Below the pieces are notes generated by a model that saw only the letters and a program-made list of their open reading frames with translations, searched no databases and had not been told where the DNA came from. A stretch of 32,317 nucleotides of DNA, taken from Caulobacteraceae bacterium. GTDB lineage: Bacteria > Pseudomonadota > Alphaproteobacteria > Caulobacterales > Caulobacteraceae. Position numbers and translations under genes: made by a program. Positions 11,415 to 31,895 of the stretch are shown here, in pieces. Location of the stretch: positions 1 to 32,317 of the forward strand of contig CANGEH010000001.1 of the NCBI GenBank assembly GCA_947452665.1. The letters are read 5' to 3'. Within the stretch, counting starts at the first letter, position 1. Each line of letters starts with the position of its first letter.

Positions 11415-11464
11415 AGGGGCGCTCCTTAGGGATGGCGCTGGGTGTCTAAAGTCTAAAGACGTAC

Positions 11465-11487
11465 GGCGGCTGGTTTCACCAGCCGCC
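11465..11487 (-). terminator. hairpin downstream of the TonB-dependent receptor gene
   Basis: GGCGGCTGG-TTTCA-CCAGCCGCC forms a perfect 9-bp stem 58 nt after the stop. The trailing sequence on the minus strand is only moderately U-rich (GUACGUCUUUAG). Confidence 0.45.
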
Positions 11488-11544
11488 GCTTAAGTTTCAA
11501 GGCCAAGCTCAAGATTAGAAAGCCCGGACTGGGCTGTTCTTAGC

Positions 11545-14500: not shown

Positions 14501-14550
14501 GTAAGTCCGGCAATGAATGTAGAATTCAATAGATGATTACGAGTCAACAT
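11545..14550 (-). CDS. TonB-dependent outer-membrane receptor
   Basis: 1001 aa with a signal peptide ending STAWSQT, a TonB-box-like VEELVVTGSRI, plug motifs (IEILKDGASSVYGSDAVAGVVNIITK) and a C-terminal beta-barrel ending ...VNITKRF. GGGGGA precedes the ATG. Confidence 0.95.
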   Translation of the reverse strand: MLTRNHLLNSTFIAGLTLAGLGLPSTAWSQTATEASAAPKAQDDVEELVVTGSRIKRNEFTSSTPIQVIRSETSELKGVVTTAQMLQGSTIASGSPQVNATISTAFVTDGGPGAQTISLRGLGANRTLVLLNGRRAGPAGTRGGVSAFDLNVLPETSIDRIEILKDGASSVYGSDAVAGVVNIITKRNLDGGEFEVHGTGPFESGGEQYRASGSWGKTFSKGYFTISGDFYKQAEQKIGDRDYTNCPEQYRFNAASGARSDLIDPRTGSFACRGTLYDQVWLYDFGGRARRGKLQYDYNGSLAAHIPTFIPGSYTDTQGRDYPVSPTGFFVVGDTGTAGEAVVDANSPLAQNATLIPEVKTTTVYAQGGYDLSKGMELYGEVLLNRRESRSNDVRQFWTYLYTYDYGDPFSAGFNGPFILSPTPVTDRYRSSQVVDYGRALLGLKGNFGETLKGWDWDIYGQFSRSDGEYTQDVILADAVYSSDGRSDYGTTGLFNENSIQRDTASCVGYLTPISKRPCIDVSWVSPDFLAGKYTAAEAGFLFDRETGKTIYDQFVIEGTMTGDVFTLPSGPVGGAFGFQIRKDEINDTPGAVTLAGNSWGLSSAGITKGKDTTKELFGELQIPLLKDVPAVQMLDLSLSGRYTDVDSYGSNNTYKIGLNWQVIPSVRLRATKGTSFRAPALFELYLADQTSFASQRSIDPCINWGNELLAGNLPQRIADNCAAAGIPDDHSGSGASATVITGGGAGVLRAETSDATTLGLIWSPKFADLRVAVEYFSIEVSDEVTQLGAANIVSGCYNSESFPTDGLCAQFARQDGTHVISTVNDSFLNVAKQTNEGIDLTIDYSRDFLSGSLGLNLQSTWQTKDTIELFADNSVDSNGDVGNPDWTSTFNARFDRGDWTGFWSVDMIGKASAAGDIGDTSSSGLTRYKVNTEFTAYHSLSIRKKMDSWTVLVGIANVFDDAPPAVSQGLGQFSNIGVSVLASQYDYFGRRGFVNITKRF

Positions 14551-14681
14551 GTATTCCCCCAGTTCACAAAGATGTCTATGATCACAAAAAATGCTAAACT
14601 GTGAATTTGAAAGCGGTTAAAGACATGTGTGAGCCGCATTACTATTCTGGGTAATCGGCCGTGCCACATTTGTTGAATTTG

Positions 14682-14757
14682 TTGCAAATATGACGCAATC
14701 CCCACCCTTCTTGGCGAGGGGGATTCAATATGGTCTGAGGTTGCAAAATATGCGCAA
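14682..14757. promoter_or_regulatory. two copies of a 17-nt motif in the divergent TBDR/peptidase control region
   Basis: TTGCAAATATGACGCAA (14682-14698) and TTGCAAAATATGCGCAA (14741-14757). Each is an imperfect TTGC..GCAA palindrome, set in a 302-bp AT-rich spacer. Confidence 0.3.
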
Positions 14758-14852
14758 ATATTTAACCTTATACGTGTAATGCGCGCACTTGTTAATAATC
14801 CGCTGCACTTTTCGTTGAGGCCCAGACCATATCCGAGCATTAGGGGAAGACT

Positions 14853-16901
14853 ATGTTGCCAACAAAAACGATGCGGTTTTGCTGCTCGGTTATTGCCACA
14901 CTATGTGCCTTTGCGCCCCAGATTAGTCAGGCCGCGGATGCGACCATTCCCACCGCAATGGATTTTGCGCGCAAGCCGGCTATTTCTGAGGTCTCGATTT
15001 CTAGGGACGGCGCCCATATCGCTGCACTAACCTCTGCGGACGGGGTTAAGGCGACCGTATCGATTTGGAAAACGAGCAATCTGACGGCGGGTGGCGATCC
15101 TTTTGTAATCGCCTTGGACAAGGTTGATATTCTGGGGGTCAATTTCATCAAGAATGACCGCCTGGTGATCACGACAATCCAGCCATTTACCTATGGCGCA
15201 AGCAAGGTTCACCTGATCAAGGTCTGGATTACCGATCTTGAAGGCAAGAATTTCCGCCCCCTTTTACCTGAAGGACGTGGACGCGCCGAAACGGAGCGGT
15301 TTCAAGATGCGCTAAGTTCAGCGGGCATTATCTCGACCCTGCCCCTCGACCCACAAAACGTCTTAATGGTCGATACGCGTCTTGCCACCCGCGGTGATGT
15401 CCTAAAGGTCAATGTCTATTCCGGGGCTATCGCGCGGGTCGAGCGCGGGTCTGACCGCTTTGGCGAATTGCAGTCGGATCTAAATGGCGAGGTACGTGCC
15501 CGCCAGGAGATTGGTTTCGACAAGGGGGCGGTTTATCTTGCCCAATGGATTCGCCACCCAGACACCAAGGTCTGGGAAGAACATTTCCGCTGGTACGCAA
15601 AGGATCGCGAACCGATCTCGATTGTTGGTTTTACGCCCGATCCCAATATCATCTATATCCAGTCGACTAGGGGGCACGACAAGTCGGGGCTTTATGTTTA
15701 CGATATAAAGCAGCGGAAAACCCTTGAGCCCCTGTTTGAGCACAAGGTTTTTGATGCGCTTCGTCCGCTCTTGTCGACAGACAGGGCCGATTATGGCGAG
15801 CCGCTTGGTTTTGCCTATGCCGGGTCCGGCTTAGAAGTCTATTGGACAGACCCTCGCCTTGCAGCGGTCAATAAGGCCGTGCAGATCGCTTTGAAATCGG
15901 TTCCCACCGCCGTAAACTGGACCGATCCGGCAAGCAATGAGACTAATCGGCTGTCTATTTTTGCCGATGCGCGGGTAGACATTATCGGATGGTCTGAAGA
16001 CCGTAAGGCCCTGATTGTTGAGCGGGCAGGACCCAGTGCGCCGTCTGAATACTATTTATTCAGCAGTTCCGGAACATTGAGCTTGTTAGGGCGGGCGCGT
16101 CCCCAAATCGATCCAGCCGGCTTGGGCACAGCGCGGCTCATACAATATGCCGCCCGCGACGGTCTGATGGTGCCCGCAATCTTGACGACACCGCCTAAAT
16201 CCTTGTTTGGCGCCGGGCCCTATCCGACCCTGATCGAGCCTCATGGCGGACCCTGGGCGCGCGACTATCTCGAATGGGACCCCGCCGGTTGGGTGCAATA
16301 TTTTGCCAGCCGCGGCTATGCAGTCTTGCAGCCTCAGTTTCGGGGGTCCGAAGGCTGGGGCCAGAGGCTCTGGCGGGCAGGCGATGGCGAATGGGGCCTC
16401 AAAATGCAAGATGACAAGGATGACGGCGTAAAATGGCTTATTGATCAAAAGATCGCCGCGCCTGACCGGGTTGCCATGTTTGGCTATTCTTACGGCGGCT
16501 ATGCCGCGCTTACAGCCGCCATCCGACCAAATGGGCTCTACCAATGTGCCATCTCCGGCGCCGGGGCCGCAGACCTAGCCAAGATTAAGCAAGAGACCTA
16601 TTCAAATCGGTTCGGCCGGGAGTTTCAAAACCCAACCATTCAAGGCCTAGACCCCTTGGCTAGGGCCACAGAGGCCGCCATACCCTTATTGATCTATCAT
16701 GGCGACCGCGACACAATAGTCGATATTGGCCAGTCTCGGCGGTTTGTCGAAAAACTAAAGGCCGCCGGCAAGCCGCATCGCTATCTCGAAATCAAGGATG
16801 CCGGCCACCAGCTCATCACCATGACCCCGACCATGCTTGAGATGCAACTTGTTGAAATCGAAACCTATTTAAAAACCGATTGCGGTCCCGGCGGATTATA
16901 G
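14853..16901 (+). CDS. S9 family serine peptidase (prolyl oligopeptidase / dipeptidyl peptidase type), secreted
   Basis: 682 aa with a signal peptide ...APQISQAADA and an N-terminal propeller-like region. The C-terminal alpha/beta hydrolase domain carries GYSYGGY (Ser), GDRDTIVD (Asp) and DAGHQL (His). AGGGGAAG precedes the ATG. Confidence 0.9.
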   Translation: MLPTKTMRFCCSVIATLCAFAPQISQAADATIPTAMDFARKPAISEVSISRDGAHIAALTSADGVKATVSIWKTSNLTAGGDPFVIALDKVDILGVNFIKNDRLVITTIQPFTYGASKVHLIKVWITDLEGKNFRPLLPEGRGRAETERFQDALSSAGIISTLPLDPQNVLMVDTRLATRGDVLKVNVYSGAIARVERGSDRFGELQSDLNGEVRARQEIGFDKGAVYLAQWIRHPDTKVWEEHFRWYAKDREPISIVGFTPDPNIIYIQSTRGHDKSGLYVYDIKQRKTLEPLFEHKVFDALRPLLSTDRADYGEPLGFAYAGSGLEVYWTDPRLAAVNKAVQIALKSVPTAVNWTDPASNETNRLSIFADARVDIIGWSEDRKALIVERAGPSAPSEYYLFSSSGTLSLLGRARPQIDPAGLGTARLIQYAARDGLMVPAILTTPPKSLFGAGPYPTLIEPHGGPWARDYLEWDPAGWVQYFASRGYAVLQPQFRGSEGWGQRLWRAGDGEWGLKMQDDKDDGVKWLIDQKIAAPDRVAMFGYSYGGYAALTAAIRPNGLYQCAISGAGAADLAKIKQETYSNRFGREFQNPTIQGLDPLARATEAAIPLLIYHGDRDTIVDIGQSRRFVEKLKAAGKPHRYLEIKDAGHQLITMTPTMLEMQLVEIETYLKTDCGPGGL

Positions 16902-16915
16902 TGGGGCAGTCGCCA

Positions 16916-17509
16916 TCAGCGAGCGCTCAGTAGGGCCGTGCCGAGCGCTGCGCAATCTGATTGGTGCGCTAGAAACCAAGCCCAGGCCCATTGTCCAACA
17001 AACACCGCGCCAGACATACAAAGTCCGAAAAAGAACACCTGATAGGCCTGGCCTAGGTGCTTGTACTTTTTCACGGCCAGAACCCGGCCCAATTGGTAAA
17101 TGTCTCGGATCATGGCCCGGTTTAACCGATCCTCATCGGACAGAAGTTCGAGCATCTGGGTTTCGAACTCGCTTTCCGGCATTTGCGCAAAAGCCCCAAA
17201 AAACAGCAGATTTGGGTGGGGGTTTTTGCCTTTTGTGGTGACCGGCAACATCACCATAAGCACTAGGAAGGCGGCAATAAACACGGTCAATATGATCATG
17301 ATCAGTGCGGCCGACACCTTGCCGTCATGCACCTCTTTCAGCGCTGCGGTAAGGATGATGAAGGATGCGCCCAAGAGCACATTGGCCTTAAAATCCGCCA
17401 TGGACGACAATTGGATATGATGTTGTTGAACAACACGCAAAAACTCGACGGTTTGATTGGAGCGTACGGGATTTGTCACAGCCAGCCTATTCCCCATTGA
17501 TCGGCCCAT
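16916..17509 (-). CDS. DUF5706 / Pycsar-effector (PycTM)-family membrane protein
   Basis: HIQLSSMADFKANVLLGASFII, then NLLFFGAFAQMPESEFETQMLELLSDEDRLNRAMIRDIYQLGRVLAVKKYKHLGQAYQVFFFG. From memory, this matches the conserved core of DUF5706 proteins (..LSQMADNKANI.., NLLFFGNF..M..EY..M..D.DFL...MI.DIYFLGKVLAKKY). There are three hydrophobic helices. Confidence 0.8.
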   Translation of the reverse strand: MGRSMGNRLAVTNPVRSNQTVEFLRVVQQHHIQLSSMADFKANVLLGASFIILTAALKEVHDGKVSAALIMIILTVFIAAFLVLMVMLPVTTKGKNPHPNLLFFGAFAQMPESEFETQMLELLSDEDRLNRAMIRDIYQLGRVLAVKKYKHLGQAYQVFFFGLCMSGAVFVGQWAWAWFLAHQSDCAALGTALLSAR

Positions 17510-17909
17510 ACATCTAGCGCGCCAATACTAAGGCATATACTCGCGCCTGTGCCCATGTGAGCGATGATGCGCGTGTTACCACGGACATAATAAGCGGCCC
17601 GAAATTGGAAACAGGGTGGGCGCACCCTAGGAAAACACCAAAAACAAACCACTAAGCAATCTGCTATATACGATAATCTCGAATACGCCACTACATCAAG
17701 TATAAAAACGATTATCTAGACTATAGAGGCGCGCCTGCTCAAATAAATACATTAAGACTGTTTCGTGACGTTACCCAAAATAATTTGTGAAATTATGCCG
17801 CCGTGGGTCTGAGGGGCCGCCCTTGCGGCCCGGTTTGCTCCGACCCGGCAATAGAGGGCCTCGCCGCCCATCTTCGGGCCTATGGGCTTGTGGGTCTAGC
17901 CTAAGGATT

Positions 17910-17933
17910 GGCGGTCCCATCCGAGGGACCGCC
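17910..17933 (-). terminator. GC-rich hairpin just after the cyclase stop
   Basis: GGCGGTCCC-ATCCGA-GGGACCGCC forms a perfect 9-bp stem 17 nt after the stop codon at 17951-17953. There is no clear U-tract on the minus strand. T-richer sequence (TTGCCTGTTT) follows on the plus strand. Confidence 0.4.
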
Positions 17934-17950
17934 TTGCCTGTTTCAGATGG

Positions 17951-20017
17951 CTATTTGGTTTTGGCGACATAGACGCCGTCCCAAGTTTGGGGGGGATTGG
18001 CCTTCAGATCATTGATCCGTTCCACCATGATCTCGTAATAGGCTTTCAGGGCGCCGGCGAAAGCGGGCGCGTCTGGGTCTGCCAGCAATTGGGTTGCGGC
18101 TTCCAAGGCAAGCTCCCAGTTGCCAAGCCTGTACTGGGTGAGCAGGTTGTTGTGTCGGTCGCGCGAGGCCTCGTCGGTCTGGGCGACATGGGTATAGATT
18201 TTACACGGCTCGGACTTGCCCTTGACGGCGATGATATCGAGCTCGATCAGATTGTCCTGCAGGGTGGTGCAGGCCCTTGCCGTTTCCTCACCCATAATCA
18301 GGGTGACACCATAGCTTTTGGATTGGCCCTCAAGCCGCGAGGCGAGATTTACCGCATCGCCGAGCACCGTATAGTCAAACCTTTGATTGCTGCCCATATT
18401 GCCGACAACGCAATCGCCCGAATTAATGCCAATGCCGATATTGATCGAGGCTAGGCCCCTTGCATTCAGCGTCTCGTTCAACACCACAAGCCGTTCGGAC
18501 ATGGTAATGGCCGTTAGAACCGCTTTTTCTTCGTGATTTTCAACGTCGAGCGGGGCATTCCAAAACGCCATAATACAGTCGCCCATATATTTATCGACCG
18601 CGCCTTCCCGGGTCATGATGGTATTGGTCATTGGCGTCAGAAAGTCATTAATAAGGGCAGACAAGCCCTGAGGATCAGACTTGAACTGTTCCGAAATGGG
18701 CGTGAATCCCCGAATATCCGAGAACATAAAGGTCATGCGCCGGGTTTCACCGCCAAGCACCAGCAGGTTCGGGTTTCTTTGCAGCCTTTTGACCATCTCG
18801 GGCGCGAGATAGGTTTCGAACTGCTTTTTGATCATCTCTTTTTCGAGATATTCACTGATAAATTTCGCGGTATAGAGGTGAATATAAATCACCATTGCGG
18901 CCAAGAAATTGAACGTAATATCAACCAGCACATGATTATTCTGGAACATATAGACGGGAAGATAGGCATAGGCCGCCAATAAACCGGCAATATAAACAAT
19001 CGAGAACCTCAGCCGCGACGCTAGGATTATCAATCCAACCAGAACGATTAGGGACGCATAGTCAAAAATCGGCATCCAGTTTGGAATGGCAATGGAGTCG
19101 CCATTCATCAAGGTCTGAAGAATGTTTGCCTGAACCTCTTGGGCAAACCGTGCGCCCTGGGGGGTTGGAACGGGATTGGCTATGCCGGCGGCCGTAACGC
19201 CAAATATGACGATCTTGCCCGCTAGGTTTGGGGTCGGCGCGCCGACGTCAAATTGTTGAAACCGGTAGTTCCAATTGATGAAGATCCGCGAAAACGGGTC
19301 CGTCTTGATGGTCGGAAACTGAGGGATGCGCACGGCCTCAACGCCAGATGCGTTAATCTTGACCTGATAAGACGGGTCGCCCGCCGCAACGCGCAAAATC
19401 TCTAGCGCAAAGGCGGGATAGAATTCGCCTTTTGACATGGCCAACAGCGGCGCGCGCCGGACCACGCCATCGGGCTCTGGCAGGGTCGAGGCAATCCCAA
19501 TACCGGCCGCATTGGCCTGCAGGTCAGCCACATTATCCAGCACGCAAGCATAGCCTGGCAGGAAGAGTGATGGATCGCCGTCCCCGACCACGGCCACCCC
19601 GGTGCGTTTCAGCGCCTGATTGGACCGGCGGCACCCGCCAACAGTCTGCGACAAGACGGTTGGATAGACGGCCAAGGCCTGGGCAAGGGCGGGGTCGCCG
19701 CCGAACCGGTCAGGCTCTGGGAACATGATACTGCTCGCAACAATGCCCGCGCCGTGGTCATAATAGTCCTTAATCAGGGCGGCATAGGTGTCGCGCGAAA
19801 AAGGATATTGGCCAAATTTTTCAAGGGTTTGCTCAGAAATATTGGCAATGACGATCTCATCGGACGGCACCGGCTTGCCGATCATCAGATAGTCGTAAAA
19901 CTTCAGGCGCACAGCCTCGACCATAAACGGGTCGGCCAGCTTGACCCCGCCTAGCAGGACAAGCGTGATGATTGCCAGCCAGGGCGATAGCAGGGCTTTT
20001 TTAATCTTGGGTGACAT
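17951..20017 (-). CDS. CHASE2 sensor-domain class III adenylate/guanylate cyclase (predicted adenylate cyclase)
   Basis: 688 aa. Order: N-terminal TM, a periplasmic CHASE2-like region, a TM cluster (aa ~320-385), then the cyclase domain (MTFMFSDIRGFTPISE, VDKYMGDCIMAFWNAP, RFDYTVLGDAVNLASRLEG) and a helical C-terminal tail of about 75 aa. Confidence 0.9.
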   Translation of the reverse strand: MSPKIKKALLSPWLAIITLVLLGGVKLADPFMVEAVRLKFYDYLMIGKPVPSDEIVIANISEQTLEKFGQYPFSRDTYAALIKDYYDHGAGIVASSIMFPEPDRFGGDPALAQALAVYPTVLSQTVGGCRRSNQALKRTGVAVVGDGDPSLFLPGYACVLDNVADLQANAAGIGIASTLPEPDGVVRRAPLLAMSKGEFYPAFALEILRVAAGDPSYQVKINASGVEAVRIPQFPTIKTDPFSRIFINWNYRFQQFDVGAPTPNLAGKIVIFGVTAAGIANPVPTPQGARFAQEVQANILQTLMNGDSIAIPNWMPIFDYASLIVLVGLIILASRLRFSIVYIAGLLAAYAYLPVYMFQNNHVLVDITFNFLAAMVIYIHLYTAKFISEYLEKEMIKKQFETYLAPEMVKRLQRNPNLLVLGGETRRMTFMFSDIRGFTPISEQFKSDPQGLSALINDFLTPMTNTIMTREGAVDKYMGDCIMAFWNAPLDVENHEEKAVLTAITMSERLVVLNETLNARGLASINIGIGINSGDCVVGNMGSNQRFDYTVLGDAVNLASRLEGQSKSYGVTLIMGEETARACTTLQDNLIELDIIAVKGKSEPCKIYTHVAQTDEASRDRHNNLLTQYRLGNWELALEAATQLLADPDAPAFAGALKAYYEIMVERINDLKANPPQTWDGVYVAKTK

Positions 20018-21077
20018 TGATTACGGTTCCCCCGCCATTGACGGACACGTCTTGTGGATCGTTTTTTGTGTTGAATATGATGGTGGTCGGTTGGTTGCTT
20101 TTGAGCTTGATCGCAATCTCAGCATCCTTGGTCTGGCCAAGGCTTAGCTTCTCGCCCTCAAGGGCGACCTTCAATCCGGACGCGGCATTATCGCCAAACC
20201 GCGCACCCTCAATCTTTACACCGTCCTTGGTGTCCTTGACCTGGGTTGGGTCGGCGAGTTCGTCGGCCAAAAATTCTTCGTCGAGTGGGTTTGTATCGAG
20301 CACAACAAGATCGATGGCATTATTGTCTAGGCTGGTATTTTTCAGATAGTCCATATCAAGCGCATCGAGATCGAGAATATTGGCGCGGCTATCGGCCCCC
20401 TCTTGCTCAGTCCCGTCATCGTTTTCCGGCGGGGAAACAATCATCATATTATTGATGGCCGTTAGGTCGAGCCGCAGAATGGTTGGATCGCTGGGGGCGG
20501 TGTCTGCTGTTGATACAAATGTGGCCTGAAAGGCCTGATTAATCACGACGAAACCGGCGGCATTACTGACCGTGATCTCGCCGACCCGGCCGTCTTCTTC
20601 CGGTAAAAGCACGATGAGACTTTTGCCAAAATCGTCCACGGTCGCAGCAAAGTCTGTGCCGCGCACAGCAATGGTTGCGGTTGGCGTTCTTAGGTCAATA
20701 TTCTTCTTGTTGATCTTGCCCAGCTGCCCGGTCGCAAACCGCACTGTGCCCGAGGCAAATTGCAACTTAAACTTCGAATTGGTCGGGTTGCCGTCATAAA
20801 CAAAGCTGTCGATAACCAGTTTGGAATGCTCGGTAACCTTGACCTTGGAATTGTCGACAAAGGTTATCTCAACCCGGCCATTTCCGGTTTGGACGCGGTC
20901 AAGCGCCTCGATGGGCAACTGCACATTGCCTGGAAGCTTGGCTGTATTGCGTACGACCTCGCTAGACCCTTTAAGGTCCGTGATTTTTCCAATGCTGGAC
21001 GCATGCGCCGGGTATGCCGACAATAGGGCGACCAGGCTGACCACAGATGGCACGAGAAATTTTACTGTGGTGGCCAT
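20001..21077 (-). CDS. FecR-domain periplasmic protein with an acidic C-terminal extension
   Basis: Signal peptide ...LSAYPAHASS. The FecR-like core is GKITDLKGSSEVVR...LDRVQTGNGRVEITFVDNSKVKVTEHSKLVID...GTVRFATG...TPTATIAVRGTDFAATVD. Its 3' end overlaps the cyclase start by 17 nt. Confidence 0.85.
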   Translation of the reverse strand: MATTVKFLVPSVVSLVALLSAYPAHASSIGKITDLKGSSEVVRNTAKLPGNVQLPIEALDRVQTGNGRVEITFVDNSKVKVTEHSKLVIDSFVYDGNPTNSKFKLQFASGTVRFATGQLGKINKKNIDLRTPTATIAVRGTDFAATVDDFGKSLIVLLPEEDGRVGEITVSNAAGFVVINQAFQATFVSTADTAPSDPTILRLDLTAINNMMIVSPPENDDGTEQEGADSRANILDLDALDMDYLKNTSLDNNAIDLVVLDTNPLDEEFLADELADPTQVKDTKDGVKIEGARFGDNAASGLKVALEGEKLSLGQTKDAEIAIKLKSNQPTTIIFNTKNDPQDVSVNGGGTVINVTQD

Positions 21078-21129
21078 TTGCTGAGTTAATTATCTCGTTC
21101 TGAGTTTTCACTATAGCTATTCGATAGCG

Positions 21130-21855
21130 TCACTGCGTGATCGTAATATTATGGTCTGAGCCGGTTATATTGACATCGATCTTGTTATAAGAAGACGCGC
21201 TGGACAGGGTCTCTGTGCCCTGTTGATTAATTTCAATCACATTTCGATATGAATTGGTCATGTCTAATTTCAGATAGCGGTAATCTGAGCCTTCTTGATT
21301 GAGGCTCACCGCGTTTAAATCTCCACCAATCGATATTCTATTGGTTACATTGTTTGCATTTAATTTCGCCGTAAAGATATTGGAATCCCCATCAATCACG
21401 ATCACCTGGTCGGCATAGGTCGAGGCCGTTACCTTGCCTTGCACCATATCCACCTGATTGCTGGATCCGGCTATGGATAGGCTGAGCTCGGAATTTGAAA
21501 TTGCGCCAATCGTGCCATGATCGAGGCTGACCGTGTTATCCGCGCCAACCATGGAGACGCTATAGGCCGTAGAGTCTGCCCCGAGGGTCGATCCGGTCAG
21601 GCTATTGGTTGTGCCTTCTTGCGTGATCGACAAGACCTGATTGGAGCCCTCGGCGATGAAGTCGGTGTCCGAACTGCCGATCGCATTGGCCGTGCCGGTC
21701 TGGACGATGGTCACGGTTGAGGATGCGCCAGACTGGTCCAGATAGGTCGAATTGTCCCCAGCCTCGGCCCAGCCCGCTAGGCCAAGGGCAAGCAAAAGCG
21801 TAAGGCCCAGCCCCGCCGGATTTAGGATTGATCGGCCTTTAAACACCAATTTCAT
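21130..21855 (-). CDS. curlin-repeat secreted protein (CsgA/CsgB-like)
   Basis: Signal peptide MKLVFKGRSILNPAGLGLTLLLALGLAGWAEA, then imperfect units such as NSTYLDQSGASSTVTIVQTGTANAIG, VLSITQEGTTNSLTG, AVSLNQEGSD and VIEINQQGTETL, ending NITITQ. The ATG at 21855 is preferred. The ORF track starts at 21891. Confidence 0.75.
   Translation of the reverse strand: MKLVFKGRSILNPAGLGLTLLLALGLAGWAEAGDNSTYLDQSGASSTVTIVQTGTANAIGSSDTDFIAEGSNQVLSITQEGTTNSLTGSTLGADSTAYSVSMVGADNTVSLDHGTIGAISNSELSLSIAGSSNQVDMVQGKVTASTYADQVIVIDGDSNIFTAKLNANNVTNRISIGGDLNAVSLNQEGSDYRYLKLDMTNSYRNVIEINQQGTETLSSASSYNKIDVNITGSDHNITITQ
21133..21756 (-). repeat. degenerate curlin-type repeat region (coding)
   Basis: Recurring x-(I/L)-x-Q-x-G-x-x-N-x units, read directly from the translated ORF. 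Confidence 0.55.
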
Positions 21856-21954
21856 TCCCAAGATATGGCCAAGCGAATAGGGCCTGGCCATAACAAGATG
21901 GCCAAGGCCCCTGACGCGCGCACTAGGTTACGCGCGCCGGGGTCCGGAGGCGAT

Positions 21955-22635
21955 TTAGCAAGCGCCGCTTGTAAATGTTGAACACTGGTTGATGATGAGG
22001 GTCTGGCCGGTTCCGGACTGGGTTATGTCCAGGGTCGCGTTCGCCGAGGTTTGATCCATCGTTATGGTGTTTGAGGTGCCGCTCATATTGATGGTGTTGG
22101 TGACCCCAATTGCGTCCAGATTGCTGGTGTAGGTGTTGCTTGTCCCGGCAACGGTGATGTCCTGGATTGAGTCGGTCGCGATGGCATACTTGCCTTGAAT
22201 AATCTCTACTGTATTGAGCGTGCCCGAAACGTCCAAGGTGAGGCTTGAATCCGACACCACATAACCGCTACCAAGCGTCAGAACAATTGCGTTGTATGTA
22301 CCATATTGCGTGATGTCGGTGGTGGTGCCGTCCGCTAGGGCTATGTCAAAATTCAATGAATTGCCTGAGCCGGATTGATCAATTGTAAGGGTTTCGTCAT
22401 CACTTGATGCGACCACATCACCGTACACCAGTATAGCTGAAGCTGCACCAATCGAATTGTTATCGCCGGCCTGATTGATCGTAATCGTGCCGCCGGTACC
22501 CGACTGATCAAGATAGATCGAGTTATCCCCATAGTCGGCTGCAGCGACGACCGATATGCCAAGTCCAAAGGCCATGGTACCGGCCAAGAGGGTCTTGATC
22601 AGGAAGTGGCTGGTTTTTGTGTTCAGATTTTTCAT
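21955..22635 (-). CDS. curlin-repeat secreted protein (CsgA/CsgB-like)
   Basis: Signal peptide ...GISVVAAA. Units include NSIYLDQSGTGGTITINQAGDNNSIG, TLTIDQSGSGNSLNF (compare E. coli CsgA IDLTQRGFGNSATL), DITQYGTYNAI, ITMDQTSANATLDITQSGTGQTLIINQ. AGGGGA lies upstream of the ATG, and the start is 12 nt after the csgG stop. Confidence 0.75.
   Translation of the reverse strand: MKNLNTKTSHFLIKTLLAGTMAFGLGISVVAAADYGDNSIYLDQSGTGGTITINQAGDNNSIGAASAILVYGDVVASSDDETLTIDQSGSGNSLNFDIALADGTTTDITQYGTYNAIVLTLGSGYVVSDSSLTLDVSGTLNTVEIIQGKYAIATDSIQDITVAGTSNTYTSNLDAIGVTNTINMSGTSNTITMDQTSANATLDITQSGTGQTLIINQCSTFTSGAC
21958..22527 (-). repeat. degenerate curlin-type repeat region (coding)
   Basis: Eight to ten imperfect Q-x-G-containing units, read from the translation. 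Confidence 0.55.
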
Positions 22636-22647
22636 TACAGTTTTCCC

Positions 22648-23520
22648 CTAGTAAAGTTGAATCGGTTTGGTTGTAGATTTGGTCGATTTCTGTTTTCCGG
22701 AATTTGCAATCTGTGGCGGGGGTGTTTTAAGCACCCACAAGCCCCGCTCCGCGCCGCGCATGACGAGCTCAACAACAGCCCCCTCAATTGCGGTCTTGAC
22801 GGCACGCGTATTGGCCTCATTTTGAGACGTGCCAGCTTCTGTCTCCAGCGTCCTTGTCGCACTGTCGAAGAATTTGAACATGGTCAGGTCAGACCCGGTC
22901 GAGAGCACGGTTTTTGTGACCTGAACATTGAGGAGGACCTCGCCGGTCGCGGTCGATACGGCCCGCAATGATACGGTCACCTGATCCTTGCGATACTCGG
23001 TCGAGGCGCCGATCCCCAGATAGCGTGCGCCAGCGCCGCCGGTCGAAACATTGCTGTCATAGCCAATAATGCCGCCCTGCAAGATCAGGCCGGCAAACAG
23101 CATGGGGTCGAGTTTGTTCGACTTTTCACCATCATATTCATCGCGCGTCTGGCGAACGATTTGACGTTCCTTGGCTAGGTCGTCGATACGGTTACGTTCA
23201 ACCACGCGAAAATTGCGGCCATGCCCGGCGTTTTTCAGCGCATCGATCAAGAGGGCCGTGCCGCCCTGGGTCACTGCGTTTGAAAAGCTCGCTGCCCCGT
23301 CCCGGTCCTTGCGCTGCCCGGTAAGGTCTGGAAAGTCATAGACAGCCACAATCGGCTGGCGCTCCATTTCCGGCAGATTGACCAGACTATCGAGCACGGG
23401 TCGGTCAACCACGGGCCGGTTCTTGGCGGTTAATTCCAGGGGCGGCGGCGGCGCAGAACTGCATCCCGCCACAAGCACCAGGCCCAAAATTGCGATTAAT
23501 GTCTTGGGGCCGGACGACAT
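22648..23520 (-). CDS. csgG: curli production assembly/transport outer-membrane lipoprotein CsgG
   Basis: Lipobox LVLVAGC. IVAVYDFPDLTGQ, QGGIIGYDSNVSTGGAGARYLGIGASTEYRKDQVTVSLRAVSTATGEVL and AERGLW align closely with E. coli CsgG (VEGSIIGYESNVKSGGVGARYFGIGADTQYQLDQIAVNLRVVNVSTGEIL). The ATG at 23520 shares one base with the csgF stop (TGATG). Confidence 0.92.
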   Translation of the reverse strand: MSSGPKTLIAILGLVLVAGCSSAPPPPLELTAKNRPVVDRPVLDSLVNLPEMERQPIVAVYDFPDLTGQRKDRDGAASFSNAVTQGGTALLIDALKNAGHGRNFRVVERNRIDDLAKERQIVRQTRDEYDGEKSNKLDPMLFAGLILQGGIIGYDSNVSTGGAGARYLGIGASTEYRKDQVTVSLRAVSTATGEVLLNVQVTKTVLSTGSDLTMFKFFDSATRTLETEAGTSQNEANTRAVKTAIEGAVVELVMRGAERGLWVLKTPPPQIANSGKQKSTKSTTKPIQLY

Positions 23521-23969
23521 CAAAACTTAAACGCCGCTACGGGTATAATGATTTCGGTTAGTCCGCCGGCGCCATCATCAATCGACAGCTTAATTTGATC
23601 GATGTTTTTCTCATAAGAAATCGTATTTCCGTCTAACTCAAAGGTTCCGCTATCTGAATCGCCCGAAAACAGGTTTTCGGTTAACTGCTGAGCCAGTTGG
23701 GAATATATTCTTGACTGCAAATTTGTCGTAAATTTATTAAGTATCGAGTTTTTTTCTTCTAGCGCCTTAGCCTTGAGATCCGATTCCAGCTTTGTTTGAA
23801 TTTCTTTTTTTCTGGTCATTTGGGCCGAGTGGAGCGCTAACCAATAACCGCCAGCGCCTTCTTTGCTGAAGGACGGGCTAGCAAATCTGTGCACAATGTC
23901 CGATGCAGACGCTAGGGGGGCGTATGCAATAAAACCGGACACCAGAAAAAATTTAAATATAGATTTCAT
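23520..23969 (-). CDS. csgF: curli assembly protein CsgF
   Basis: Signal peptide [22 protein letters not shown]. The mature [24 protein letters not shown] parallels E. coli CsgF [39 protein letters not shown] and the C-terminal beta segment also align. The ORF track's start at 24008 is a TTG, so the ATG at 23969 is preferred. Confidence 0.85.
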   Translation of the reverse strand: [149 protein letters not shown]

Positions 23970-24144
23970 GATCAATCTGGTTCCAGAACCTGCATTGTTG
24001 TTAACCAAATTTCAGTATTTGAAACAAGTGTCTATTCTGGGAAAAATTTGATCTTGGGGCATTTAAGTTTAGTCGCCTGCGCCTAGCCATAAGCTTGGGC
24101 GCGCCCTGTCGGTCCCAATCTGCCAGGCTTTCAACCCTTTGGGT

Positions 24145-26652
24145 TCAAGGCGCGGGCTCAGCCTGCAGCAATCGGGCGGCAGCCTCGGCCACAGTCCGGC
24201 TCAGTATACCCGGCACTGGACCGCGATAGTTGGCCGCCGCTGCCCGCAGGGCCGCCAGCCGTTCCGGCGCTGTTATGAGACCAAGGATTTCATCTTCCCA
24301 GGCCGCCAGATCGTCTGGGTCGATCATCGGCATCAGCCCTTCGGACGCTTCGCGCAGCGCCGGGTGGGTACCGGTAACGACCGGCGTGCCACAGGCCAGG
24401 CTCTCGGCCACCGGCATGCCAAAGCCTTCCGCAAAGGAGGGGAATACAGTGAAAAGTGCCCGGCGATAGAGCAGGGCTAGGGTATCGTCCGCCACCCCCT
24501 CGAGCACAAGCAGGTGCGGTGCCAGTCGCCAGTCTCGCCGCAGCCAGATCCGCACCGGCTCCACCCCCCAGCCCCAGCGGCCGACAAACACCAGTCGCGG
24601 GAGTTCGGCCTCCGGCAGCTTGCGCCTTAGCCGGTCCCAGACCCGCAGCAGCAGCAAATGGTTCTTGCGCACCTCGATGGTGGAGCAGAACAAGATAAAG
24701 GGCCGCCCGTCCGCCAGCCCCGGGGGTAGGGCCGCATGACCACTGCCGCCGCGAAGGCTCGGCGCCAAGCCTGGATGGGCTATGCTGATATGGGCGGGAT
24801 CAACGGGATCGGCTATGCCACAAAAGTCTGTATCGGCAGCCGCCGCCCCATAGGAGGCGGCACTATGGGCCGAATTGGCCACCAGATGGTTGGCCTGGGC
24901 CAGGATGGCTAGCGCCTGGGAGACGAAGCCCTTGACCTCGCGGCCATCGGTCAGTTGCGGCACTTCCCATGCCACCATGTCATGCACGACCATAACCGCG
25001 CTACGGCCGCTCGCCCGCCACGCTTTAAAGATACTGGGCGCGGCATAGTCCCAGGGATTGGAAACTGAGACCAATACCCGTCCCTCGGGCAGGGGGGCTG
25101 CCAGCCGATGCCCTGCCGGCGGCGGGGATGAGGCCGGTCGCACCGGCAAGGCCCGGCGCCACCACCTTGCCACCCGCCAGCCCAGCGCCATGGCCTGCCA
25201 AAGCCGCCGCGGCATGGCGAAGAAGGCCAGCCCCGCTAGGCCGCGCAGGCGCAGCCGATCGGGCGCGGGAAGCCCTGGGCCTGGTGGTATGGGCAGGCTA
25301 ACCTCAAAGCGCTGGTTCACCCATTCGGTCTCGGCGCGGTCCAAGGATCGATAGCCACCGCTTGCGGGGTCATGGCGCACGAGGCCTAGGCGCAAATCGG
25401 GCCGCGCATAAAGCGCCTCGAAGACTTCCGCCTCCACCCGGCTCATTCCCATAGGGGTCTGCCAGCCATGCTCCAATGTCCGGGTCAGGTCCAGCAGGAC
25501 GCCAGGTTCGGTGGCGGGCACAGGCACGACCGCGGTTTCCCCGGCAAGCACGGTCACCAGGCGTGGCACGACCACTCCCGCGGCGAACTCGGCGCGGGCG
25601 CGGGCAAGGCCGGCCTGAGCTAGACGCGCGCAGAGGGCGTCATCGGTCGCTAGGCGATGCAGGGCGCCAGCCAGGGCTGACGCGTCGCCCTCAGGTACCA
25701 GCAGGCCGTCCTGCTCATGATTGATCAATCTTGCCGGCGCACCTGCGGCCACGGCAATCACCGGCCGGGCATGGGCCCAGGCCTCGATAATGGCGCGGCC
25801 AAAAGTTTCGGGCCCGCCCCCGCTTGTCTCCGAAGACACGACGACCCCGCGGCAGGCCTCCAGGTCCGGCCCTGGGTCGGGCACATAAGGCTCCAGCCTA
25901 AACAGGCCTTGTAAATCGGCCGCCGAAACCTGTTGTTCCAGCGCCGCATAGAGCGCCGCATCGGCCCTATAGCCGATGGAGCGAATTTGCACGGGCGTTC
26001 CGGCAGCGCGCAATATCGCCGCCGCACGGATCAGTGCGGCATGACCCTTCCAGCCATTGACGGTGGCCAGATGCAGCAATGGCCCCGCTATTGGCGGCAG
26101 GCTAGCGTCCTGTGTCGGCAGTTCCACCATGTCGGGCACGACCAAGGCGCGCAGTGGGCCGCGTGGGGCGATGAAGGGCTCTAGATAGTCTGGGCGGTCT
26201 AGAACCACCTGGTGCGGAACTAAAATCGTGGCGCCGACCAGGGGCTGCAACACCTGGCCAAGGTCCGACCAGAGAAAATCGCGCACATAGACAAAGCTGC
26301 GCGCACCCAGACCAGGCAACCAACGCGTCGCGGCCGCGAGGATGCGGGCCGAGCCATGGGTATTGGCCAGCACGACTGCCGGGCGCAGGCGCAGATAAAG
26401 CGCGATGAAACGCTGCACTGCCCGGTCGAAATCTGCATCATCTGCGCTGGCAACCGCGGTGATATGCAGGTTTGGCCGGGCAAGTTGGTGCAAGGCCTGC
26501 AGATGCAGCGGGCTCTCGGCAATCACCGCGGCCCGCTGGCCCGGCGGCAGATGGCGCAGTATGATCTCCAGACTGCGTTCGGCCCCGCCATAGCCGGGAC
26601 TGACAGAAACCACCAATAGCGGGCCGGCGGGCATGCCCGCGTTCTGGTTCAT
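24145..26652 (-). CDS. tandem glycosyltransferase (two GT4/GT-B type domains)
   Basis: N-terminal half: LLVVSVSPGYGGAERS...SSETSGGGPETFGRAIIEAWAHARPVIA. C-terminal half: ILFCSTIEVRKNHLLL...FTVFPSFAEGFGMPVAESLACGTPVV (E-x7-E region). The ATG at 26652 is 8 nt after the upstream stop. Alternative starts are at 26685 (ATG) and 26691 (TTG). Confidence 0.8.
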   Translation of the reverse strand: MNQNAGMPAGPLLVVSVSPGYGGAERSLEIILRHLPPGQRAAVIAESPLHLQALHQLARPNLHITAVASADDADFDRAVQRFIALYLRLRPAVVLANTHGSARILAAATRWLPGLGARSFVYVRDFLWSDLGQVLQPLVGATILVPHQVVLDRPDYLEPFIAPRGPLRALVVPDMVELPTQDASLPPIAGPLLHLATVNGWKGHAALIRAAAILRAAGTPVQIRSIGYRADAALYAALEQQVSAADLQGLFRLEPYVPDPGPDLEACRGVVVSSETSGGGPETFGRAIIEAWAHARPVIAVAAGAPARLINHEQDGLLVPEGDASALAGALHRLATDDALCARLAQAGLARARAEFAAGVVVPRLVTVLAGETAVVPVPATEPGVLLDLTRTLEHGWQTPMGMSRVEAEVFEALYARPDLRLGLVRHDPASGGYRSLDRAETEWVNQRFEVSLPIPPGPGLPAPDRLRLRGLAGLAFFAMPRRLWQAMALGWRVARWWRRALPVRPASSPPPAGHRLAAPLPEGRVLVSVSNPWDYAAPSIFKAWRASGRSAVMVVHDMVAWEVPQLTDGREVKGFVSQALAILAQANHLVANSAHSAASYGAAAADTDFCGIADPVDPAHISIAHPGLAPSLRGGSGHAALPPGLADGRPFILFCSTIEVRKNHLLLLRVWDRLRRKLPEAELPRLVFVGRWGWGVEPVRIWLRRDWRLAPHLLVLEGVADDTLALLYRRALFTVFPSFAEGFGMPVAESLACGTPVVTGTHPALREASEGLMPMIDPDDLAAWEDEILGLITAPERLAALRAAAANYRGPVPGILSRTVAEAAARLLQAEPAP

Positions 26653-26659
26653 GGCCTGA

Positions 26660-27637
26660 TCACAATCCGACCTCGGCCGAGGCATAGGCAAGCACGCGCT
26701 GCGGCAGCGCCGCCTGCTGCCGCAGAGTCATCTCTCCGCGGTCGAGCCGGTCCAGCAGGCCGCGAATGGTCAAGCCCTGCAATGGCGGGTCTATGCCAAG
26801 CCCGGCCTGAATCGCTGGGGCGATTTCTAGGCTGGCACGGCGCCGTTCGATTTCTTCGGCATAGCGGCGCCAAATGGCCATTCTTGGCGCATCGATACTC
26901 AGCCGCAGCGGCACGGTATTACTGCCATCGTCCTTGTACCGATACTCGCCGATAATGTTGTCCAGGGCGTGATAGGAGAACGGATAGCGCGTGCCCAGCC
27001 TTAGGTGCCATTCATAGTCTTCGAACAATTCCAGGCTGTCATCGGCCCACAAATCCGCCTTGGCGATGCGGCTGCGGTCTAGCAACATGCCATGGAAAGG
27101 GCAAAACCCGTCGCGAAATGTATCCACCAAGGTCTGGCCTGGCAGTCTGCCCAGCCGGGCAAATCCGATGCCGAAAGGCACAGCGGTCGAGGCGGCCAAG
27201 CTCTTCAGCGCAATACCGCCAAAAGCTACAGCGCCTCCGCTGGCCGACAAGGCGTTCACTAGCACCGTATAGGCTTCAGGATAGAGCACATCGTCATAGT
27301 CGAGAACCGCGAGGTATCGGCCGCGGGCCTCGGCAATCCCCGCGTTCAAAAGGGCGGAGCGGGCATCGGCCAAGCCATCCTCACGGGTATAGCGCACCAC
27401 ATCCAAGCTTACCGACGGATCAATCGCGCGAAACGGGGCGAGCCTTGCCTCCAGCGCTTGCGACTGCGCGTCAGTGAAGCGCTGGGTTACCAAGAGCACA
27501 CGCAGCGGCCGCCAAGACTGAGCAATCAGGCTCAGCAGAGCGCCGCTCAACTCTTCGAACAGGGCCGGATTATGGAACCGGACAATCACCTCGACGGCAT
27601 CGCTTAAATCGTCATGCATTAGACCGGGTCCTACCAT
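26660..27637 (-). CDS. glycosyltransferase family 2
   Basis: VEVIVRFHNPALFEEL...SLIAQS...RYLAVLDYDDVLYPEAY is a GT-A fold with a D-x-D region. The start is ambiguous: the ATG at 27637 overlaps the upstream stop as ATGGTAG, and other candidates are the ATG at 27619 and the TTG at 27670. Confidence 0.72.
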   Translation of the reverse strand: MVGPGLMHDDLSDAVEVIVRFHNPALFEELSGALLSLIAQSWRPLRVLLVTQRFTDAQSQALEARLAPFRAIDPSVSLDVVRYTREDGLADARSALLNAGIAEARGRYLAVLDYDDVLYPEAYTVLVNALSASGGAVAFGGIALKSLAASTAVPFGIGFARLGRLPGQTLVDTFRDGFCPFHGMLLDRSRIAKADLWADDSLELFEDYEWHLRLGTRYPFSYHALDNIIGEYRYKDDGSNTVPLRLSIDAPRMAIWRRYAEEIERRRASLEIAPAIQAGLGIDPPLQGLTIRGLLDRLDRGEMTLRQQAALPQRVLAYASAEVGL

Positions 27638-30229: not shown

Positions 30230-30512
30230 CAATAGGGGGTCCCAAGCGATTGCGGCCCAGCCTGCCTAAGCCCGGGCCCTAAGAAGCTTTGGCGCACGCT
30301 TAAGAATAGTTCAAGCAACAGGTCGGACGGCAGTGAGTAAATTTGGTGCAAGGCGCTAAACCACAAAGAAACAATTTTGTCCCTCTAGCTTATTCCACGA
30401 AACGGCTCAACCCGATGCAAGTCTGCGACGGCGCTCGCAGGCCTGGCGGCGGATCGCGTTTAAACTGAACTCGCTATAAGCGCGTATCGAGAACCGATGA
30501 CGGGATACCCGC

Positions 30513-31325: not shown

Positions 31326-31895
31326 TTGGAGGCCTTTGGTTATGGGTGGTCGACCAATAACACGGTTACGTAAACTCGAAAGCGCGAATTCAATACTCAT
31401 CAACAATGCCACGCGCGAATGCTCTAAATTTGGCGCTTGCTGGTAAATTTGCCACATTCCGCTTCTTGGCCCCGGCATGAGCCGGTGCCCCGCGCGTAAG
31501 ACCCCTAAAGCGGCAAGTCCTTAAACCTTGGAGCAGACGTCAAACCAATGGCGCCGTTGAGGTGCACGCCTAGGGGTCATGGCGCTAACGGGGCTGGCGG
31601 TGGTGTCAGTCTAACGCGAACTTGTCTCTATTAGAGGGCGGTTTGGCTGGGGGGCGAGGCCTGTGCGGCGAGCGCCTTTCACTCAGCCGGGGCGGCTCCG
31701 ATTGAAAGGGTTGCGGAATGCGTCTTGGTTGGGGTCGACCATCGGCAGCGTCTTTATCTGGCGGAGCCCCTGGGATCAAAAAGCCCTCTAGTATCGTCAT
31801 TGGGGTGTCATCCATCAAGACTCCCCGTTTGGCCCCTTCCTAGGGGCCTTTAAAACCATTGTCGGGCCGCCGGTCAGCGGTGACCGGCGCGGGCA

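Follow-up and report, generated by a model that had tools for sequence, protein, structure and literature searches.

A curli-type secretion cassette with a FecR-domain protein and a CHASE2 cyclase in a bacterial chromosome, a probable copy of a viral module

Why do genes for curli-type secretion form one tight row with genes for a FecR-domain protein and a CHASE2 cyclase in a bacterial chromosome, and where did this row come from? The question is raised by a stretch of 32,317 nt from a Caulobacteraceae bacterium (contig CANGEH010000001.1, assembly GCA_947452665.1, forward-strand positions 1-32,317), which was analyzed in its full length and is called the window below. Six tightly packed open reading frames (ORFs) on its minus strand encode CsgF, CsgG, two curlin-repeat paralogs, a FecR-domain protein, and a CHASE2 cyclase; together they are referred to as the cassette. 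The best overall explanation, to which we assign a probability of about 0.6, is that the cassette is a bacterial chromosomal copy of a viral type VIII secretion module, which is carried by T4-like pelagiphages and methylophages. Judged from the sequences compared, homology of the cassette with the phage module is very probable. The phage module, which comprises a type VIII secretion system (T8SS), FecR, and the cyclase, is known; its presence in a bacterial chromosome, nested in phage diversity, is new, and so is the sequence-based evidence that places the FecR-like protein with the secretion genes.

The cassette and its phage relatives

The cassette and the features discussed together with it are the following:

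23520..23969, minus strand: csgF, type VIII secretion adaptor with signal peptide (maximal ORF from TTG 24008)
22648..23520, minus strand: csgG, outer-membrane lipoprotein secretion channel (lipobox LVAGC; ATG overlaps the csgF stop)
21955..22635, minus strand: curlin-repeat subunit 1 with signal peptide (Curlin_rpt and CsgA models)
21906..21945, minus strand: GC-rich stem-loop between curlin 1 and curlin 2 (folding versus shuffles)
21130..21891, minus strand: curlin-repeat subunit 2 (paralogy with subunit 1)
20001..21077, minus strand: secreted FecR-domain protein (Pfam FecR, phrog_37870)
17951..20017, minus strand: predicted CHASE2 class IIIb adenylate cyclase (Pfam CHASE2 and Guanylate_cyc)
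17910..17933, minus strand: stem-loop 3' of the cyclase gene (9-bp GC stem, 18 nt past the cyclase stop)
16916-17509, minus strand: PycTM-family gene (Pfam PycTM, PADLOC)

All six ORFs of the cassette, which had been listed with their coordinates in an earlier note on this DNA, are present on the minus strand. The junctions, too, are as the note had described them: the csgF stop and the csgG ATG overlap as TGATG, csgG is followed by curlin 1 after 12 nt, curlin 2 begins 63 nt past curlin 1 and the FecR-like gene 52 nt past curlin 2, and the FecR-like gene shares 17 nt with the cyclase gene. These junctions are too short to hold additional genes. The csgF start was revised from TTG 24008 to the likelier ATG 23969, at which the signal peptide (MKSIF...) begins and on which independent gene calls (149 aa) concur. 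The assignments as CsgF, CsgG, and curlins were borne out, for five of the six cassette proteins by Pfam and for curlin 2 by paralogy.

A search with the cyclase protein retrieved thousands of full-length homologs, of which one cluster is 91% identical and the rest at most 61%, with no homolog cluster in between. Three of the homologs were looked up, and all three are encoded in contigs with T4-like genes (DNA polymerase B, ribonucleotide reductase, PhoH, T4 RNA ligase, dCMP deaminase) and in the order CsgF, CsgG, curlin, FecR, CHASE2 cyclase. This order was seen, along with T4-like genes, at all six phage-like metagenome loci that were inspected. At least 560 viral contigs in IMG/VR contain a relative of the cyclase with 43-59% identity. 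Each locus scan covered the best 80 loci; for the viral linkage, three non-redundant phage-like metagenome loci and the best 80 IMG/VR loci were used, 53 of which have 5 kb or more of sequence upstream of the cyclase. The csgG/curlin/FecR/CHASE2 linkage recurs: csgF, csgG, and the FecR-like gene are located upstream, on the strand of the cyclase, in 50 of these 53 viral contigs, and a curlin is detectable in 46 of the 50 complete cassettes. Of the three exceptions, one has the set inverted downstream and two are devoid of it. The cluster is also present in a cultured phage, the Pelagibacter phage HTVC008M, as gp014-gp019, in which gp017 corresponds to the FecR-like protein (E 2e-58, 37% identity) and gp019 to the cyclase (41%).

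The attachment of FecR and a cyclase to csg genes, which the earlier note took to be undescribed, is thus annotated in HTVC008M and has been analyzed before (Wittmers et al., 2022; PMC9599517). CsgF/CsgG clusters were first reported in pelagimyophages (Zaragoza-Solas et al., 2020; PMC7029224), and such clusters are also present in the OM43 phage Melnitz, for which a role in the timing of lysis was proposed (Buchholz et al., 2022; PMC9004378). The full phage cluster of T8SS, FecR, and adenylate cyclase was described together with its global distribution and its expression, and an alphaproteobacterial origin followed by transfer among phage families was inferred (Wittmers et al., 2022; PMC9599517). 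The same study stated that FecR and the cyclase are absent from bacterial type VIII secretion operons, a statement that is corrected by the window.

The situation in cellular genomes is different. A scan of one genome per species (185,579 species) gave at least 599 candidates, and the best cellular cyclases are only 32-38% identical to that of the window. In the best 80 cellular cyclase loci, neither csgF nor csgG nor a curlin is present within 10 kb. Conversely, the best cellular CsgG proteins in a plasmid collection (43-50% identity) belong to Sphingobium, Indioceanicola, Azospirillum, Bosea, Rhizobium, Sulfitobacter, and Salinibacter, and none of these seven T8SS loci contains the FecR-like gene or the cyclase within 6-7 kb; several carry csgH instead.

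The view of the locus as an ordinary bacterial curli operon had to be given up, since its proteins are of the phage type by full-length PHROG matches and by nesting in phage clades. PHROG matches in the window are limited to four proteins of the cassette, and all four are full length: the cyclase (phrog_35576, 6.8e-206), the FecR-like protein (phrog_37870, 1.5e-69), CsgG (phrog_20175, 4.1e-69), and CsgF (phrog_35372, 1.2e-28). In the cyclase tree, the cellular CHASE2 cyclases are split from all other sequences with 100% bootstrap support, and a viral lineage of two loci, L153 and L165, lies outside of the window and all other viral sequences (98%); L153 is a confirmed T4-like phage contig (CobS/CobT, gp32, gp59). 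In the trees of CsgG, CsgF, and the FecR-like protein, the window groups with viral subgroup A, i.e., the viral subgroup in which the FecR-like and cyclase genes are directly adjacent or overlap, with 100% support each. When eight cellular outgroups were included in the CsgG tree, the group of window and subgroup A again had 100% support and subgroup A alone had 88.5%, while a split of cellular sequences plus window versus viral sequences received 0%.

The window as such is cellular and stems from an uncultured freshwater-type relative of the Caulobacteraceae. Outside of the cassette it encodes two acyl-CoA dehydrogenases, an amidohydrolase, an O-acetylhomoserine sulfhydrylase (MetY; 88% identical to a protein of a Caulobacteraceae metagenome-assembled genome and 84% to Caulobacter proteins), a polysaccharide glycosyltransferase/methyltransferase cluster, a TonB-dependent receptor, an S9 peptidase, an outer-membrane beta-barrel protein, and a photolyase fragment. 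Phage-gene remnants are absent from the intergenic DNA that flanks the cassette, and neither a tRNA gene nor an integrase gene was found in the window. An assembly chimera was considered and rejected: two contigs assembled from other samples are continuous at both cassette boundaries and 99.94-99.96% identical to the window over them, and this agreement of two independent assemblies excludes a chimeric assembly. Several full-length variants with at least 90% identity occur in other assemblies, and therefore the genes are maintained in a natural population. The GC content of the cassette is 51-57%, compared to 34-47% in the phage contigs, and its GC content at third codon positions (GC3) is 0.61-0.66 (csgF 0.45), compared to 0.72-0.74 for core genes.

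Components of the cassette and a possible signaling route

CsgG and CsgF are predicted from their sequences to form the outer-membrane export pore for both curlin paralogs. CsgG matches the Pfam family (5.5e-52) as well as the E. coli CsgG structures (1.5e-45 across residues 8-266) and is 63-67% identical to the proteins of viral subgroup A. CsgF matches its Pfam family with 5.9e-18, and a comparison of homologous N-termini revealed that its mature N-terminus agrees with the FQFKNPSF plug motif of phage CsgF (phage EIVFQFKNPSF); presumably it also fits the N-terminal plug motif of E. coli CsgF. Curlin 1 (Pfam Curlin_rpt 1.3e-5, NCBIfam CsgA 1.3e-8) consists of about 9-12 repeats of the IxIxQxG type, shares a C-terminal NQC...C motif with phage curlins, and is 32-36% identical to them. 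Curlin 2 has no Pfam match and only a weak match to the NCBIfam CsgA model (8.8e-4), but it is a clear paralog of curlin 1 (36% identity, BLASTP E 2e-26), bears the same type of repeats, and is 34-37% identical to phage curlins. Its true start may be Met13, which would result in a more typical signal peptide. Further curli proteins were searched for among all 21 non-nested ORFs of the window with at least 120 aa. Neither CsgE nor CsgC is encoded there, and the claim that the window is devoid of a CsgD-type regulator and of GGDEF/EAL proteins held, as CsgD/LuxR, GGDEF, and EAL domains are all missing from these 21 ORFs.

The cyclase combines a CHASE2 domain (Pfam 7e-38, residues 20-326) with a class III catalytic domain (Guanylate_cyc, 1.3e-19). 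It is built from a first transmembrane (TM) helix, the periplasmic CHASE2 domain (about 26-315), three TM helices, the cyclase domain in the cytoplasm (about 420-610), and a C-terminal domain of helices (616-673). An AlphaFold2 model calculated with 17 homologs has helices at 12-28, 315-336, 340-361, and 368-400; its mean predicted local distance difference test (pLDDT) score is 56, and the CHASE2 fold is poor (below 50). The best solved relative is CyaB of P. aeruginosa (3r5g, 7e-32), and alignment to it located the catalytic residues D434, D480, K476, T550, N557, and R561, which are invariant or at least 90% conserved in the 17 homologs. We take D434 and D480 to bind metal, K476 and T550 to confer adenine specificity, and N557 and R561 to stabilize the transition state. 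With this full catalytic set and a class IIIb adenylate cyclase signature, the enzyme is predicted to make cyclic AMP (cAMP). Several cyclases of class IIIb are stimulated by bicarbonate.

The FecR-like protein contains a FecR domain at residues 60-153 (Pfam 6.6e-12) and is 50-57% identical to the proteins of viral subgroup A. A signal peptide is followed by a conserved part (residues 60-210), a linker that is variable and acidic (net charge -17), and a beta-rich C-terminal region that is variable, yet closes in an IxVxQ that stands out in the conservation profile. Neither an anti-sigma domain nor a TM helix was found in the protein. The C-terminus resembles that of the curlin (DVSVNGGGTVINVTQ versus DVNITGSDHNITITQ), and a comparison of the C-terminal region with the curlin repeat gave an E value of 0.62 in BLASTP and a P value of 0.01 with 4% probability in a profile-profile alignment, which is no better than the value of a CsgF control.

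The earlier note had regarded FecR and CHASE2 as a pair that was attached to the curli genes as a unit. The co-inheritance pattern is different. Across 49 loci, the pairwise distances of the FecR-like protein are correlated with those of CsgF and CsgG with coefficients of 0.89-0.93, compared to 0.44-0.47 for the CHASE2 domain, and the viral locus L148 combines a secretion/FecR block of subgroup A with a cyclase of another group. From these distance correlations and recombinant loci such as L148 it follows that the evolutionary units are CsgF, CsgG, curlin, and the FecR-like protein on the one hand and the CHASE2 cyclase on the other hand, i.e., the FecR-like protein is co-inherited with CsgF/CsgG and only loosely tied to CHASE2. 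Mosaic cassettes with incongruent phylogenies of the secretion/FecR block and the cyclase were seen within the viral loci L089-L168 (e.g., L148, L111, and L105), and in many phages the cyclase is separated from the FecR-like gene by 1.5-2.4 kb of additional genes. The incongruent phylogenies and the extra genes at this site therefore place a mosaic breakpoint between the two genes.

The FecR-like protein is probably a periplasmic adaptor that is associated with the secretion system and would signal to the cyclase. A pairing of FecR with CHASE2 had been presumed to recur elsewhere, and this is indeed the case: 27 of 61 cellular CHASE2-cyclase loci have an ORF with a FecR domain within 10 kb, and in eight of the 61 it is located directly upstream of the cyclase. 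One example is a 1381-aa secreted protein of Bradyrhizobium sp. ORS 111 (locus L025, 5676-9821), which combines an N-terminal FecR domain with cadherin-like/Ig domains and whose gene is immediately upstream of that for a CHASE2 adenylate cyclase; similarly large ORFs with a FecR domain are located before the cyclase at seven other loci, most of them from Bradyrhizobium and one from Methylobacterium. In Burkholderia a LysM-FecR protein is encoded in an operon with a CHASE2 histidine kinase (PMC5192318), and SMc02177 of S. meliloti is a FecR-domain protein and a Clr target in a CHASE2-cyclase/Clr cAMP pathway (PMC5498481). FecR domains may generally act as adaptors by which varied extracytoplasmic modules are joined to CHASE2 sensors.

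The following working model can be envisaged. The CsgG/CsgF pore would, by homology, export both curlin paralogs. The FecR-domain protein would be a periplasmic part of the secretion machine that binds to the periplasmic face of the pore or to its cargo, in analogy to the docking of FecR on FecA. It could relay the state of the pore to the periplasmic CHASE2 domain and thereby set the output of cAMP, which would act via a CRP/Clr-type regulator encoded elsewhere. The relay from FecR to CHASE2, which is based on analogy, is put forward tentatively.

The six genes are tightly packed, but the description of a cassette that runs without a break leaves out of account a strong stem-loop between both curlin genes. 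The earlier note saw no stem with a U-tract at the internal junctions and placed the first strong hairpin after the cyclase. However, the stem-loop at 21906-21945 is stronger (z = -4.0, -39 kcal/mol per 76 nt, none of 200 shuffles as stable) than the hairpin at 17910-17933 (z = -3.0), and a clean U-tract is present in neither of them. Because of this stem-loop the operon does contain internal structure. The stem-loop is a candidate for attenuation or for mRNA stabilization and may raise the first subunit relative to the downstream products, while the hairpin at 17910-17933 is the probable 3' end of the cassette unit. A second, 7-bp hairpin at 21885-21904 (UGGCCAU/AUGGCCA) pairs the annotated AUG of curlin 2, and the hairpins at 21885-21945 could tune the ratio of the two curlin subunits. 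A perfect 5-5-5 palindrome, TTTCAGTATTTGAAA, is located at 24010-24024, about 40-55 nt upstream of the csgF ATG. It was considered as a csgF operator and rejected: two matches with at most one mismatch were found versus 0.76 expected, 20 of 100 shuffles reach two or more, and the motif is not conserved upstream of phage csgF. Matches to promoter-like consensus sequences (10 versus 6.4 +/- 2.4 in shuffled sequence) and to terminator-like consensus sequences (5 versus 8.9 +/- 3.3) are near chance, and an Rfam scan of the window had no matches.

The cassette belongs to a lower-GC stretch from about 10300 to 24100 (GC3 about 0.60-0.66) that splits the glycosyltransferase/methyltransferase cluster (7363-10280 and 24145-30232; GC3 0.63-0.74, with 0.70-0.74 on the 24-30 kb side) and also contains a 263-aa gene without assigned function, the TonB receptor, the S9 peptidase, and PycTM. 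At 11545-16901, the genes for the TonB-dependent receptor (1001 aa) and the S9 peptidase (prolyl-oligopeptidase family) are divergently oriented, and their pairing is kept, mostly in direct adjacency, in 75 of 80 metagenomic relatives of the S9 peptidase (42-68% identity), which suggests a unit for peptide uptake and degradation. Neither the cassette nor PycTM was found at any of the 80 relatives of this locus. On the other side of the cassette, an OMP_b-brl/OmpA-like beta-barrel gene (30567-31478, minus strand) has a GC content of 0.46 and a GC3 of 0.48, compared to 0.60-0.67 in its context. It has weak similarity (25-29% identity, best E 7e-7) to small outer-membrane protein genes near the cassette in 13 viral loci, in five of which the beta-barrel gene is located immediately 3' of the cyclase, and it may be a second phage-derived gene.

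Weighing the origin and the role of the cassette

Capture of the cassette from a phage related to subgroup A, with the genes kept intact since then, is the likelier course of events, and a single capture in the direction from phage to cell is the most parsimonious history. Several points weigh against the proposed origin and role. All trees are neighbor-joining trees with simple distance corrections; the split of cellular CsgG from viral CsgG plus window has only 59.5% support and the deep nodes are weak, the position of the window in the cyclase tree is supported by 74% versus 26%, and a sister relationship with subgroup A alone gives no direction of transfer. The drop in GC3 is modest, and the neighboring genes for the TonB receptor and the S9 peptidase, which are conserved in cellular relatives, have similar values. 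Rarer cellular copies could exist, because the scan comprised the best 80 of at least 599 candidates and one genome per species. As for the role, the window contains no gene for a cAMP receptor, signaling from FecR to CHASE2 might predict a tighter co-evolution than was seen, and the AlphaFold2 model of the FecR-like protein, calculated from its single sequence, has a mean pLDDT of 34 and is unusable.

The rival that survives best is a transfer in the reverse direction, in which the window lineage or close cellular relatives would be the alphaproteobacterial source of the phage module and the bacterial copy would be ancestral. It is in agreement with the alphaproteobacterial origin that has been inferred for the viral module (Wittmers et al., 2022; PMC9599517), and the window is a sister of subgroup A and not clearly part of it (88.5% for A alone), is near the base of the cyclase clade, and has a cassette of largely host-adapted composition (GC3 0.61-0.66). 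However, other viral groups lie outside of the window plus subgroup A in the CsgG, CsgF, and FecR trees, and a T4-like lineage does so in the cyclase tree (98%). With this topology, the reverse direction would therefore require several independent transfers from unsampled cells to phages. A close cyclase is also missing from the species-representative genomes, and the relatives of the flanking TonB receptor/S9 locus are devoid of the cassette. Taken together, a bacterial source is unlikely.

Less probable still is that the module is a regulated outer-membrane pore that does not serve amyloid fibers, in which CsgG/CsgF would be gated for uptake, release, or the timing of lysis, the curlin-like proteins would serve a different purpose, and gating or expression would depend on control by cAMP. 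The constriction loop of the window CsgG reads ASF in an alignment to E. coli CsgG, the loop of which we take to be SNF, and CsgE, CsgC, and CsgH are absent. A pinholin- or secretin-like function has been proposed for phage CsgGF (Melnitz; Buchholz et al., 2022; PMC9004378), and uptake of larger molecules has been raised as well (Zaragoza-Solas et al., 2020; PMC7029224). On the other hand, two intact curlin paralogs with signal peptides are encoded between csgG and the FecR-like gene, curlins are detectable in nearly all complete viral cassettes (46/50), and the N-terminal plug motif of CsgF is conserved. Moreover, alphaproteobacterial curli systems are normally devoid of CsgC, CsgD, and CsgE (Dueholm et al., 2012; PMC3521004).

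The phage literature suggests that the FecR-like protein is an iron-responsive regulator of the FecR type, which would couple curli to iron or ferric citrate via FecA/FecI-like signaling. A Pfam FecR domain is present, an iron link has been discussed for the phage module (Wittmers et al., 2022; PMC9599517), and a gene for a TonB-dependent receptor is only 3.4 kb away. However, the FecR-like protein has a cleavable signal peptide and neither a cytoplasmic anti-sigma domain nor a TM helix, a gene for an ECF sigma factor is absent from the window, and the TonB receptor consists of Plug and barrel without a signaling (STN) domain and belongs to the pair with the S9 peptidase, which in 75 of 80 relatives is found in the absence of the cassette. 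FecR proteins that are paired with CHASE2 carry LysM or cadherin modules unrelated to iron (PMC5192318). Iron regulation is thus very improbable.

The predicted cyclase is followed, 440 nt downstream and on the same strand, by a gene of the PycTM family (former DUF5706; Pfam PycTM 8.8e-25; PADLOC PDLC02364 9.6e-18, full length), which is not mentioned in the earlier note. The two genes could be read as a Pycsar-like anti-phage pair, in which a cyclic nucleotide activates a membrane-disrupting effector and the curli genes are incidental. In Pycsar systems the effector is usually downstream of the cyclase, as is the full-length PycTM match here, and the cyclase domain matches PycC models with up to 9e-29. 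Yet such matches are expected of any class III cyclase domain, the lysine and threonine are of the adenylate type, the best solved match is the adenylate cyclase CyaB, and the gap of 440 nt contains a hairpin and an AT-rich stretch. The homologs of the PycTM gene in related bacteria (87%, 67%, and 69% identity) are solitary and have no adjacent cyclase, and therefore the adjacency in the window looks incidental. Furthermore, a PycTM match is present in none of 166 loci with cyclase homologs (86 viral and 80 cellular). The Pycsar pair was therefore rejected on account of solitary PycTM homologs and phage cassettes without PycTM, and we consider it highly improbable. Orphan PycTM genes are conserved in Caulobacteraceae-like bacteria.

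A chance adjacency of an ordinary curli operon and an unrelated FecR/CHASE2 pair, to which the general occurrence of such pairs without csg genes in cells might point, is already refuted by the comparative data, i.e., by the gene order shared by HTVC008M, six metagenome loci, and 50 of 53 viral contigs, by the co-inheritance of the FecR-like protein with CsgF/CsgG, and by the 17-nt overlap and the short gaps. In evolutionary terms the linkage is a functional one.

The bacterial copy of the viral module might be helpful, because the function of the phage module is debated, with "sibling capture" fibers, an uptake pore, and the timing of lysis as proposals, and the known phage hosts (SAR11, OM43) are devoid of the system and hard to manipulate. 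An intact six-gene copy in a bacterium indicates that the module can work outside of the infection cycle and offers a cellular context for its study. It also illustrates a probable flow of a multigene auxiliary cassette from phage to host, and cAMP together with a FecR-domain adaptor is a candidate regulatory route for curli-like systems that are not controlled by CsgD and c-di-GMP. It is conceivable, though rather doubtful, that a free-living alphaproteobacterium has domesticated the complete six-gene module of a lytic T4-like phage, with the FecR-like protein as a new component that signals from the CsgG pore to the CHASE2 cyclase. If so, the window would be the first cellular home of the viral curli system and would contain a cAMP-based counterpart of FecA-FecR signaling.

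Comparison with known systems

The cassette is most similar to the phage T8SS module of HTVC008M and Melnitz. Both have the gene set and the order csgF-csgG-curlin-FecR-like-CHASE2 cyclase on one strand, and both are devoid of CsgC, CsgD, and CsgE. The window proteins are 50-67% identical to those of viral subgroup A and 36-45% to those of HTVC008M. The phage modules reside in phage genomes and the window copy in a bacterial chromosome, and there are differences in layout: the FecR-like gene is preceded by two adjacent curlins in the window and has one curlin on either side in HTVC008M, and the small upstream ORFs that are called histidine kinases in the phage literature are missing from the window. 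The overlap of the FecR-like gene and the cyclase gene is common to the window and viral subgroup A, unlike the insert of 1.5-2.4 kb in many phages.

Cellular alphaproteobacterial curli loci (PMC3521004; Rhizobium, Bosea, Azospirillum, Sphingobium, and Sulfitobacter plasmids) have in common with the window the adjacency of csgF and csgG, the curlin repeats, and the absence of CsgC, CsgD, and CsgE. However, their CsgG is only 43-50% identical, several contain csgH, which is absent from the window, and none of the seven loci has the FecR-like gene or the cyclase. The enterobacterial csgBAC/csgDEFG system shares CsgG, CsgF with its N-terminal plug motif, and the curlin repeats. In contrast to enterobacterial curli, which are governed by CsgD and c-di-GMP, the window has no CsgD, CsgE, or CsgC, no divergent two-operon layout, and no nearby GGDEF/EAL gene, and the attached signaling enzyme is of the cAMP type instead of the c-di-GMP type.

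The signaling part of the cassette has its closest parallels in the FecR-CHASE2 pairs of Burkholderia ("BiofilmReg", PMC5192318), S. meliloti (CyaD1/CyaD2/CyaK, PMC5498481), and Bradyrhizobium, in which the gene for a membrane sensor with a periplasmic CHASE2 domain directly follows that for a secreted FecR-domain protein. If such a pair has a cyclase as its output, the cyclase is of class III, as in the window. The accessory module of the FecR protein is LysM or cadherin/Ig in the known pairs, in contrast to an acidic linker and a small beta-rich domain in the window, and the cyclases of the cellular pairs are only 32-38% identical to that of the window and none is linked to csg genes. Conceptually, the cassette resembles FecA-FecR-FecI, in which a FecR domain in the periplasm senses the state of a protein in the outer membrane and relays it to an inner-membrane or cytoplasmic output. 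The window differs in having no anti-sigma domain, TM helix, ECF sigma factor, or TonB transducer with a signaling domain; its predicted output is a cyclase.

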